From NCBI GenBank assembly GCA_964645535.1, contig CAZYCQ010000006.1, positions 37,583 through 101,582 on the forward strand: a stretch of 64,000 bases of DNA, written 5' to 3'. Both the position numbers and the translations under genes were made by a program. Positions 8,258 through 10,762 of the stretch are shown here, in pieces. Every line of letters starts with the position of its first letter. Within the stretch, counting starts at the first letter, position 1. This stretch comes from an uncultured archaeon. GTDB taxonomy: Archaea; Asgardarchaeota; Heimdallarchaeia; Heimdallarchaeales; Kariarchaeaceae. The notes under the pieces are model-generated. The model was not told the DNA's origin, searched no databases, and saw only the letters and a program-made list of their open reading frames with translations.

Positions 8258-8311
8258 TCATCATTGCAGCAGAAGAGCAAAAGACTATGTTTTATATTCA
8301 ATGTCAGAACC

Positions 8312-9517
8312 ATGATTGTGAAAACCTTCCCCAAAATGGTCAAATGGGAAGAAGCTATGCAACTGATTTCCTCCCATATTCGACCAATTGCTGATGAAGA
8401 ACCAATCTCCATCAATGATGCATATGGACGAATAGCAAGCAGAAACGTCACTGCAACCCGACAGATCCCAGCATTCCCCATGTCCCTCGTCGACGGATTT
8501 GCAGTCGCAGATGACTCTGGAGAATGGACAATTGTAGGAGAAGTCAAGATCGGAAAACAGCACCAGATCAAACTCGAAGAAGGACAATGTGCACGAATCG
8601 CAACAGGTGGGATAGTACCCGAAGGAACATACGCCATTCTCAAAATAGAGGACGTTCAATTGACACAAACAGAAACACAAGGAACTGTCATCTATTCAAA
8701 AGAAATCAAAAAAGGAAATGAATTCGTCCCGGCAGGAAGTGACATTCCCTTGGGAAAAACCATACTCAAACACGGCCAACGAATTGGCTTCAAAGAAATC
8801 ACAGTACTATCCGCCCAAGGACATCCCGCAGTCTTCGTCAAACGAAAACCAAGAATCTTCCTGATCATCACTGGTCATGAAATCAAACCCCCAGGAGTAG
8901 AGCTGCAACATGGTGAAACATACGATTCCACATCGGCAATGCTACGGGCACTTGTCACACGCCTAGGAGCAGAAATTCTTGAAGTCATCTATGTGGGAGA
9001 AGACGTCGATTCAATCAGAGCCGCTCTAGGACAGTCAATGCCCATCGCAGACCTCATCATAACAACAGGAGGAACATCGGTAGGAAAGGCAGACAACGTC
9101 GCAAAAACAATCGAAATGCTCGGTCAAATCATCTTCCATGGAATGAACGTCCGACCAGGAAAACCAATGCTCTTCGGAATGATTGAAGGAACACCAATCC
9201 TAGGATTCCCGGGATTTGTAACCTCAAGCCTCGTCATGGCTCACCTTCTCCTCCCAAAAGTCATTGCAGACCTCTATGGAATCCCTCCCATCGAATTGAA
9301 ACAAACTCAAGTCCAACTGGCAAATGATATCAAAGGATACCTAGGATGGAACCGTATCATCCCAGGAAAAATCATCCAAGGAAAATTCCACTCAACTTTC
9401 AAAACAAGCGCAGCACTAAGCAGCTTCGCAGAATCTCAAGGATATATCCACCTGAAACCGGACGAGGAGATCGCAAGAAAAGGAGAAACCAGACTGTTCA
9501 CCCACTTCATCAAATGA
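8312..9517 (+). CDS. moeA: Molybdopterin molybdenumtransferase
   Basis: SLVDGFAV, IATGG.VP.G, TTGGTSVG..D, RPGKP, PGF; start moved to ATG 8312. Confidence 0.9.
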   Translation: MIVKTFPKMVKWEEAMQLISSHIRPIADEEPISINDAYGRIASRNVTATRQIPAFPMSLVDGFAVADDSGEWTIVGEVKIGKQHQIKLEEGQCARIATGGIVPEGTYAILKIEDVQLTQTETQGTVIYSKEIKKGNEFVPAGSDIPLGKTILKHGQRIGFKEITVLSAQGHPAVFVKRKPRIFLIITGHEIKPPGVELQHGETYDSTSAMLRALVTRLGAEILEVIYVGEDVDSIRAALGQSMPIADLIITTGGTSVGKADNVAKTIEMLGQIIFHGMNVRPGKPMLFGMIEGTPILGFPGFVTSSLVMAHLLLPKVIADLYGIPPIELKQTQVQLANDIKGYLGWNRIIPGKIIQGKFHSTFKTSAALSSFAESQGYIHLKPDEEIARKGETRLFTHFIK

Positions 9518-9614
9518 AGCAAAATTCATTGACTAATCAGATTCGATCTGAAATGCAGACCATCAGCTTTACACAATGATTGCAACCTATGCCAGATACT
9601 CCATTGTAGCATCA

Positions 9615-9857
9615 GTTTCAATCCCTAATGGGTCTTCACCCTCTCATAACAAGTCAACATAGGATTTTAAAAAATGTAGACCCATGGTTTCAATCCCTTA
9701 AGGGTTCTCATCTCTCGCGACCAAGATTGACATGCTGAAAAACCATGGAGAAGGGTTCAAACCCTCATATGTTTTCAGCAGTTACAACAAGTCAACATAT
9801 AATTTAAAAAAATGTGGGGTCATGGTTTCAATCCCTTATGGGTTATCATCTCTTGAC
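9615..9857 (-). CRISPR. Degenerate orphan CRISPR-like mini-array (4 diverged repeats, 3 spacers)
   Basis: Repeats at 9615-9650, 9687-9721, 9754-9788 (most diverged) and 9825-9857; three begin GTTTCAATCCCT. Reverse complement of repeat 2 is GTCGCGAGAGATGAGAACCCTTAAGGGATTGAAAC (CCC/GGG hairpin plus ATTGAAAC handle). Spacers 36, 32 and 36 bp. No cas genes in window. Confidence 0.6.
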
Positions 9858-9879
9858 AAAGACTAATTTTATAACTTAA

Positions 9880-10491
9880 GTCATTCTACATAAAATTTAC
9901 GAAAACAAATATGACTTTTGCATCGATTCAAAAGAATCACAGTTTTCAGAAGCTGTCCTCATAAAATTCAAAATCACATCCAGATCAAGTAACTCACGAA
10001 TTATTGCTATATTCATACCAAGAAGAAACATAAAAATAGATGGTAAAGCATACGAAGACATCGTAAAAATTCTTTCCGAGAAGGCAAGAGTTGAAATCAA
10101 AAACCCCGCATATAGATTGACCCCATTACTCGAAAATATGGAAGAAGATATACGGCAGCTGAAATTAAGGATACTTGCAACATTTTTCACCCCACCACAG
10201 ACTTTCTTCGCACCATCTGGAAGAATAATCTCCCTGCCCGAATTTAGTGTCAGAAACGGAAGGGACGTCCATATACTCGACCTAGAACAGCCAAGCCAGG
10301 AATTGATCCATATATTGGATGAAATCGAATTCCTCCAACCTGTACTCAAAAACTTGGATCGAACAATAAGGAATTGGGCATATCAAACTACAGATACAAC
10401 GATTAAAAACCTCATCGAAAAACTTACCAAAAATAACCAACCGTCCAAATTTGTTGAGATGCTGATTCAATGGCTCCAAAGATTCCGATGA
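9880..10491 (+). CDS. Hypothetical protein; frame open from 9880 but no ATG/GTG/TTG before 10117 (non-canonical start or 5' truncated)
   Basis: Stop-free frame checked by hand from 9880 to 10491; the ORF track reports only 10117..10491. Confidence 0.45.
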   Translation, partial: VILHKIYENKYDFCIDSKESQFSEAVLIKFKITSRSSNSRIIAIFIPRRNIKIDGKAYEDIVKILSEKARVEIKNPAYRLTPLLENMEEDIRQLKLRILATFFTPPQTFFAPSGRIISLPEFSVRNGRDVHILDLEQPSQELIHILDEIEFLQPVLKNLDRTIRNWAYQTTDTTIKNLIEKLTKNNQPSKFVEMLIQWLQRFR

Positions 10492-10762
10492 GAACCTTCC
10501 GAAAATTATAATTACTTCAAAATACTACTTCAATTGTCTACGGACGGACATGGAATTTCAGTGCGAGATTCGAAACATGGTGCTGAAAAACCAATAGTAG
10601 ATCCTTCTAAAGGGCGTGTAGCTCAGCTTGGTAGAGCAGCGGGCTTTTAGGGTGTATTCAAAGATACCCGAAGGTCGAGGGTTCAAATCCCTCCACGCTC
10701 ATATTTTTTTTGTGTGTATTTTGTGGAAGGATTTATTATTGTTTTTTTCATTTTTGTGAACG
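10492..10762. other. Candidate replication origin (strand-composition switch)
   Basis: Hand counts on + strand: G3/C14 at 10381-10440 versus G18/C6 at 10861-10920, both inside + strand ORFs. Confidence 0.4.
10612..10701 (+). tRNA. tRNA-Lys(UUU) with 16-nt intron at 37/38 (10650-10665)
   Basis: Acceptor GGGCGTG/CACGCTC-A, D arm GCTCAGCTTGGTAGAGC, anticodon TTT at 10646-10648, BHB helix CTTT/AAAG, T arm GAGGGTTCAAATCCCTC, downstream T-run. Confidence 0.93.

Follow-up and report, generated by a model that had tools for sequence, protein, structure and literature searches.

Sequence analysis of a diverged, leader-bearing mini-array points to a relic of the resident type I-B CRISPR system in an Asgard archaeon

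A small array of four diverged repeats in the genome of an uncultured archaeon of the family Kariarchaeaceae looks like a fairly ordinary CRISPR relic, in which three of the four repeats still seem processable. Judged by its sequence, the locus is derived from CRISPR and belongs to the genome's own type I-B repeat family. We consider it probable that this mini-array is a static or decaying immune relic, namely an orphan type I-B array with its own leader, and not a regulator. The window, i.e. the whole stretch of DNA that was analysed (64,000 nucleotides), corresponds to positions 37583-101582 of contig C6 in a 3.6 Mb assembly of 176 contigs that is 89% complete. Within this 101.6-kb contig the array occupies C6:47197-47439, with 47 kb or more to each end of the contig. 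The features of the locus and its two bordering genes are listed below in window coordinates.

8264-9517: moeA gene
9615-9650, minus strand: repeat R1, leader-distal, 36 nt; handle ATTGAAAC and CCC-ATTA-GGG hairpin as in the canonical repeat, other half diverged
9651-9686, minus strand: spacer S1, 36 nt; near-duplicate of S3 (29/36)
9687-9721, minus strand: repeat R2, 35 nt; handle and stem intact, loop changed to TTAA
9722-9753, minus strand: spacer S2, 32 nt; has a 13-mer in common with the region upstream of tRNA-Lys and pairs with R3
9754-9788, minus strand: broken repeat R3, 35 nt; included for its phase and its likeness to R1
9789-9824, minus strand: spacer S3, 36 nt, diverged copy of S1; its minus-strand RNA reads CATGACCCCACA, then T7
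9825-9857, minus strand: leader-proximal repeat R4, reduced to 33 nt; intact handle and stem, loop TTAT
9858 to about 9968, minus strand: leader, with homology to those of the canonical C58 and C98 arrays
10612-10701, plus strand: tRNA-Lys(UUU) gene (Rfam tRNA, 59.7 bits) with an intron of 17 nt following the anticodon loop

The resident type I-B system and the repeat family of the mini-array

The initial annotation had described the array as Cas-less. This is correct locally, as a tblastn search with the Cas proteins of contig C98 recovered no type I-B cas genes or remnants in the window, including the region beside the leader. Genome-wide, the description does not hold: cas6, Cascade genes and canonical arrays of the same repeat, for which a search had been proposed, are all present. 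Canonical repeat arrays were found on C58 (17 repeats, extending to the end of the contig), at both ends of C98 and at contig ends of C71 and C123. Between the two arrays of C98 lies a type I-B operon consisting of cas8b-like, cas7, cas5, cas3 and cas6 genes, with hits to Cas7/Csh2 (TIGR02590, 215 bits), Cas5b, Cas3 (HD and helicase domains) and Cas6; a 150-aa ORF matches the C-terminus of Cas8b, and a 544-aa ORF in the cas8 position is without a family match. A second I-B locus on C92 comprises cas6, cas8b, cas7, cas5, cas3, cas4 and cas1. Because the repeat family is co-located with the I-B operon of C98, the cognate system is assigned to type I-B, which replaces the type I-D/III-like assignment made initially from the hairpin and handle.

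The contig of the mini-array itself carries a lone cas6 gene at C6:9571-10350 on the minus strand (locus L016; TIGR01877, E=2.8e-13), 37 kb from the mini-array. It is the only type I-B cas homologue on C6, and no Cascade gene was found on this contig. Its neighbours are an AMP phosphorylase gene on one side and an unrelated gene on the other, and neither an array nor further cas genes lie in the vicinity. Likely orthologues are present in two genomes of the same genus, G002 (53% identity) and G001 (39%). In addition, a solitary diverged repeat of the same family (GTTTCAATCTCTAATGGGTAATCTGAACAATTGCAAC), with no second repeat, was observed at C42:28686-28722, upstream of a gene resembling leucine-rich repeats by sequence; other relics of this repeat family therefore exist in the genome. 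Altogether, the assembly contains at least four CRISPR repeat families. The three further families, distributed over C33, C69, C35, C54, C74 and C115, have the repeats GTCTCATTGACTGAGAATCCTAGTAATAGGTTGAAAC, GTTACAATAGAGGTTTCTAGCTGGTCTAGATTGAAAG and the 30-nt GTTTCTAGACCATAAAGGTACTTCTTAGAG.

Both the number and the positions of the four repeats agree with the initial annotation: they start at 9615, 9687, 9754 and 9825, which gives a start-to-start spacing of 72/67/71. The spacers of 36, 32 and 36 nt are near the canonical ~35-40 nt of the C58 array, so that length and periodicity are normal, and AT-rich cores such as those of S1 (TTTTAAAAAA) and S3 (TTTAAAAAAA) are also present in canonical C58 spacers. 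On the minus strand, R1, R2 and R4 all terminate in CCC-N4-GGG-ATTGAAAC, as had been noticed for three of the repeats, and R3 differs (GAGGGTTTGAACC).

The canonical repeat of the genome is a 37-nt sequence (GTTTCAATCCCTAATGGGTCATTATAGCTCTCGCGAC), which is matched by R1, R2 and R4. An nhmmer profile built only from the canonical repeat variants of this genome and searched against the 64-kb window returned R1 (E=1.4e-5), R4 (7e-5) and R2 (0.004, full length) as the top three window matches. R3 alone was not significant, since its ungapped agreement with the canonical repeat (19/37) is equalled by 391 window positions; its identity to R1 is 24/36, in phase with the other repeats (p~0.02, our estimate). 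The first 18-20 nt of R1 are identical to the canonical C58/C98 repeat, as is the far end of R2 (CTCTCGCGAC). A CCC/GGG hairpin is predicted for R2, and for R1 a competing GGGU/ACCC hairpin is predicted as well. R4 reached 29.9 bits against the Rfam family CRISPR-DR56 on the minus strand, which is under the gathering score, and the weak sub-threshold Rfam matches at the locus all belong to CRISPR direct-repeat families. An 18-nt motif occurs in three exact copies in the window, where no other site has fewer than three mismatches to it. A candidate fifth repeat at ~9543 ('R0') was rejected with an ungapped score at background level. A scan of GTDB genome contigs returned two unrelated arrays (Bacillota, Bathyarchaeota), which have only the repeat start GTTTCAATCCC in common with the mini-array.

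Searched against the genome by blastn, the leader alone had its two strongest non-self matches in the leaders of C58 (E=7e-10; 77% identity over 84 nt) and C98 (E=0.008). These two canonical leaders, taken after the last repeat in GTTTCAAT orientation, are 83% identical to each other over 110 nt, and the flank of the mini-array aligned to them with 75% (C58) and 68% (C98) identity. This homology identifies the locus as a true, leader-bearing CRISPR array. Read on the minus strand, the best-conserved leader block (CATTCTACATAA..TTT.CGAA) gives the TATA-like sequence TTTTATGT, which precedes R4 by ~30 nt and represents a putative promoter. As the leader sits on the transcription-upstream side of repeats ending in ATTGAAAC, the crRNA strand is the minus strand, in line with the orientation chosen originally. 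The GC content of the leader is 27% versus 43% in the canonical leaders; at sites where the C58 and C98 leaders agree, 20 GC-to-AT changes compare with 5 AT-to-GC changes.

Repeat decay and the retained processing core

The repeats of the mini-array measure 36, 35, 35 and 33 nt and differ from each other by substitutions and indels, in contrast to the identical repeats of an adapting array. Likewise, an adapting array has unique spacers, whereas only two distinct spacers and one diverged duplicate are found here. The duplication of S1 and S3 reported earlier (36 nt each, 29/36 identical, 138 bp apart) was reproduced and forms part of a 68-nt unit at 9648-9715 that is repeated at 9786-9853 with 87% identity. 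The resulting order R-S1-R-S2-R-S1'-R is the product one would expect from unequal crossover between repeats. With a divergence of 19%, the two spacer copies have changed at about the rate of the unconstrained repeat half.

The decay is not evenly distributed. In R1, R2 and R4, none of the 42 handle and stem positions is changed, versus 20 of 57 positions elsewhere (Fisher p=4e-6; p=3e-5 with R3 included), which substantiates the proposal that hairpin and 8-nt handle were kept selectively; the hairpin loop is changed at 3 of 12 positions. The functional repeat variants of C58, C71 and C98 differ from one another in the same pattern, and part of the core conservation could therefore predate the stranding of the array. 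The repeats of an active array are mutually identical, which dates the differences among R1, R2 and R4 to the time after homogenisation had stopped. With ~10 events across the variable half of 19 nt, the 14 core positions should have received ~7; none was seen (p~1e-3, our estimate). Over much of its history the locus was probably under selection for processing by Cas6 and for loading into Cascade, and selection on the processing core may continue today. Such lasting selection would not be expected of a pure fossil and speaks against the relic reading. The conservation of this core keeps functional readings of the locus alive, without favouring regulation specifically.

The minus strand contains oligo-T tracts in all three spacers (T7 in S3, T6 in S1 and T5 in S2), and the S1 part of a minus-strand RNA would consist of CATGGGTCTACA, T6 and an AT-rich tail. 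Such oligo-T tracts act as terminators for archaeal RNA polymerase.

A possible history of the relic could have started with the leader-proximal end of an array being copied to this site or left behind by a rearrangement. Unequal crossover between repeats would then have duplicated one spacer-repeat unit and, once spacer acquisition had stopped, the repeats would no longer have been kept identical and would have begun to decay. If the conserved leader promoter still fires, it would produce a minus-strand pre-crRNA, which Cas6 could cut at R4, R2 and R1, leaving the broken R3 uncut. The predicted products are one canonical crRNA with S1 and one long handle-S3-R3-S2 species, or a version of the latter that stops early at T7. 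Loading of these RNAs in trans could be performed by the type I-B Cascade of C98.

Chromosomal surroundings and the neighbouring tRNA-Lys gene

The array is located in a housekeeping region between moeA and the intron-bearing tRNA-Lys gene, which lies 755 bp from the array and was found by Rfam after having been missed by ARAGORN. Further neighbours are genes for a Na-sulfate/citrate-type transporter, a longin-membrane (longin-7TM) protein, a subtilase and EF-2 as well as a small ORF. No viral, integrase or mobile-element genes were recognised near the array, PHROGs gave no meaningful match for the adjacent ORFs, and no toxin candidate was recognised adjoining the array. On the plus strand, an open frame of 203 codons (9880-10491) contains no ATG, GTG or TTG before 10117 and is thus without a start for ~240 nt. 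It belongs to a multi-copy family (motif RILATFFTPP..FFAPSGR) with paralogues on C97, C42, C24, C154 and C11, the similarity to which starts near 9985. The same domain is found at the C-terminus of a ~1000-aa protein of C11 and of a ~1300-aa protein of a relative, and no family was assigned in Pfam, PHROGs or the protein atlas. The frame looks like a gene fragment or a shortened, stand-alone copy of this C-terminal domain. Like the AT drift of the leader and the oligo-T tracts of the spacers, it is counted among the indications of decay.

The S2-R3 part of the array stands out by its resemblance to the neighbouring tRNA locus. S2 has an exact 13-mer and gapped flanks in common with 10565-10593, directly upstream of tRNA-Lys; the local score of 29 was reached by 5 of 1463 random genomic pieces (p~0.003). 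In R3, the handle has become TTTGAACC, the Cas6 stem is gone and no CCC/GGG hairpin is predicted. Together with its flank (GAAGGGTTCAAACCCTC...CATATGTTTT), this repeat resembles the T-arm and trailer of tRNA-Lys. S2 and R3 (9722-9795) are also predicted to form a long hairpin (-19.3 kcal/mol, z=-2.26). As the S2 seed mismatches the site upstream of the tRNA, this site is not a workable Cascade target. The likeness could be that of an old self-derived spacer with a disabled repeat, a local sequence patchwork, or chance.

This resemblance and the short distance to the tRNA gene could also suggest that the repeats are no CRISPR repeats at all, but tRNA-Lys T-arm fragments or integration scars. 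We regard this as the remotest of explanations: R1, R2 and R4 match the canonical repeat over their full length, including the end that is not part of a T-arm (CTCTCGCGAC), the flank is a CRISPR leader, and integrase or mobile-element genes are missing from the recognised neighbours. For R1, R2 and R4 the tRNA origin is refuted; any tRNA-derived sequence would be limited to S2 and R3.

Another reading places the activity on the plus strand. Here, S1 and S3 would each provide an archaeal BRE/TATA promoter in their AT core, directed into R2 and R4 respectively, with the outcome of either a short RNA that stops at the S2:R3 hairpin or expression of the downstream open frame. The cores do precede R2 and R4 by ~20-25 nt, T-runs are missing from the plus strand at these sites, and the S2:R3 hairpin is stable. 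However, the AT core is close to a palindrome and would work equally well for both strands, AT-rich spacers are common in canonical arrays, and the downstream frame opens with the long start-less stretch described above. Since such promoters would also leave the selective retention of Cas6 hairpin and handle unexplained, we consider this reading highly improbable.

Synteny in related genomes, to which the initial annotation had looked for support, provided none. In a DNA search of 40 relatives, the mini-array was not found and only canonical repeats were matched. The same-genus genomes G001-G003 lack the array after moeA and around the tRNA gene. They contain moeA, tRNA-Lys, the small ORF and the longin gene, whose order and orientation differ in each of them. 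All three represent different species with MoeA proteins only 41-64% identical, and the absence shows lineage specificity and a rearrangement-prone site, but does not show recent loss.

The sequence was found only in three DNA metagenome runs from hot springs, all belonging to one study, with no RNA run listed as containing it, and was confirmed in the source sample. Over the array (window 9413-9982), the depth of Logan unitigs was about half that of the flanks or less, with 6.5 versus 12 in X1 and 3.6 versus 10.9 in X2, and no Logan contig is listed for 9858-9982. Strain heterogeneity at the locus is one possible cause of the low unitig depth, but k-mers shared with other arrays might also suffice to explain it.

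Spacer targets and comparison with known systems

The spacers were compared with the genome and with viral contigs, for which the initial annotation had proposed a search allowing partial, PAM-adjacent seed matches. In the genome, neither full nor partial nor seed matches exceeded chance. In the assembly, blastn-short and an ungapped full-length scan returned no second full or near-full match of any spacer, and the best partial self-match (S2 versus C65:9864, 25/32) is near the chance limit. Seed matches (positions 1-5 and 7-11, with the PAM undefined for this system) amounted to four each for S1 and S3 versus ~7 expected in the genome; nearly all of them fall in long open frames and none in cas contigs. 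Exact and degenerate scans of IMG/VR and the JGI metagenomes, which would miss a diverged target, yielded no protospacer. With an assembly 89% complete, a target could sit in unassembled DNA. The lack of a recovered target is the reason why a static or decaying immune relic appears most likely.

The initial annotation had interpreted the locus as a regulatory, non-immune guide of the CreA/CreR type. According to this interpretation, a trans-acting CreA/CreR/crlRNA-type locus would produce R4-S3 and R2-S1 RNAs that guide the I-B Cascade to repress one or two promoters by partial complementarity. Each of these Cas6-processed RNAs would combine the 8-nt handle with a seed of 12 nt and a terminating T-run ('one-handle'). 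CreTA modules with creA have been described for type I-B in Haloarcula hispanica and Halobacterium hubeiense (PMC8501985, PMC9458426). In these modules, creA is located inside the cas operon beside creT, has one or two degenerate repeats and matches the adjacent promoter by its seed next to a PAM (PMC8501985, PMC9458426). Furthermore, creA genes have no leader, a feature that separates them from mini-arrays (Cheng et al., PMC8501985).

Several features of the locus recall this arrangement. Handle and hairpin are kept amid degeneration, as in the degenerate repeats flanking creA (PMC8501985), and in S1 and S3 the first 12 nt are richer in GC and lead into T6 or T7, similar to terminator-ended one-handle CreA RNAs (PMC8501985). 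The cognate system belongs to the subtype in which CreTA was found, and Cascade, several cas6 genes and the lone cas6 on the same contig are all available. Nevertheless, a regulatory role appears unlikely. The leader, the four repeats and the site remote from cas genes contradict the published definitions (PMC8501985, PMC10120712), the number of seed matches stays below expectation without any spacer match in cas contigs, no Cascade gene lies nearby, and the locus is absent from three genomes of the same genus. Moreover, the seven differences between S1 and S3 are at minus-strand spacer positions 5, 6, 7, 9, 19, 24 and 25; with four of the seven in positions 5-9, the duplicate spacers have diverged most in their PAM-proximal seed, which is the opposite of what a common regulatory target would predict. 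Even less probable, in our view, is a variant in which the two diverged copies give rise to cas-remote, leader-driven one-handle RNAs (AUUGAAAC, a 12-nt seed and an oligo-U stop), each steering Cascade to a different chromosomal or viral promoter. If true, this would represent CreA-style regulation uncoupled from the cas locus.

Immune function in trans deserves consideration as well, with S1, S3 and S2 as ordinary antiviral spacers of a still-useful array directed against an unsampled virus. The processable repeats, the conserved leader block, spacer lengths near the canonical range and AT-rich cores like those of C58 spacers would all fit such an array. Yet we consider it improbable that the array is still useful: the exact-match scans of IMG/VR and JGI metagenomes, in which a diverged target is missed, gave no protospacer, repeat indels and the shortened leader-proximal repeat argue against recent acquisition, and with S1 and S3 19% diverged, the spacer sequence itself does not look conserved.

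Compared with CreA, the mini-array is similar in its mutually divergent repeats that keep the Cas6-processing nucleotides and the 8-nt 5' handle, in its type I-B host and in a possible terminator after a short seed. It differs from creA by its leader, its four repeats, the absence of nearby cas genes and the lack of a seed match. Altogether, only the selective retention of processing nucleotides is common to the mini-array and CreA-type guides.

In the catalogue of Shmakov et al. 2023 (PMC10120712), a broader group of regulatory mini-arrays, comprising CreR and its relatives, is defined by a pair of repeats that are separated by 15-60 bp and located in a cas locus or next to one. These mini-arrays show conservation across related loci, and their spacers partly match the promoters of cas8 or cargo genes (PMC10120712). 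The present locus resembles them in having repeat-like sequences outside a main array, and its AT-rich, promoter-like spacers would suit a promoter target. In contrast to these mini-arrays, it has neither the two-repeat structure at a cas locus nor their conservation nor a promoter match. Mini-arrays and solitary repeat units of viruses and mobile elements (PMC6858448, PMC11656645) are alike in their few spacers, host-type repeats and distance from cas genes; unlike those of virus-borne arrays, the surroundings here consist of chromosomal housekeeping genes (moeA, transporter, EF-2, subtilase).

The relic corresponds to the orphan or degenerate class 1 arrays processed by Cas6, with which it has in common a leader, regular repeats of the resident family, normal spacers, repeat decay and duplicated spacers. 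In both cases, Cas proteins, if any, come from a distant locus. The mini-array differs from orphan arrays by its very small size with two distinct spacers, by indels that distinguish every repeat, and by a Cas6 stem and handle left untouched in three of the four repeats.

The correct annotation of the locus is that of a CRISPR-derived element of the encoded type I-B system, and listing it as a new guide-RNA system would be wrong. The locus provides an example of uneven decay, in which the Cas6 stem and the 8-nt handle are intact while the other parts of the repeats, the spacers and the leader have drifted. Given expression data from Heimdall-group enrichments, the locus would offer a cheap test of whether orphan Asgard arrays still feed Cascade.
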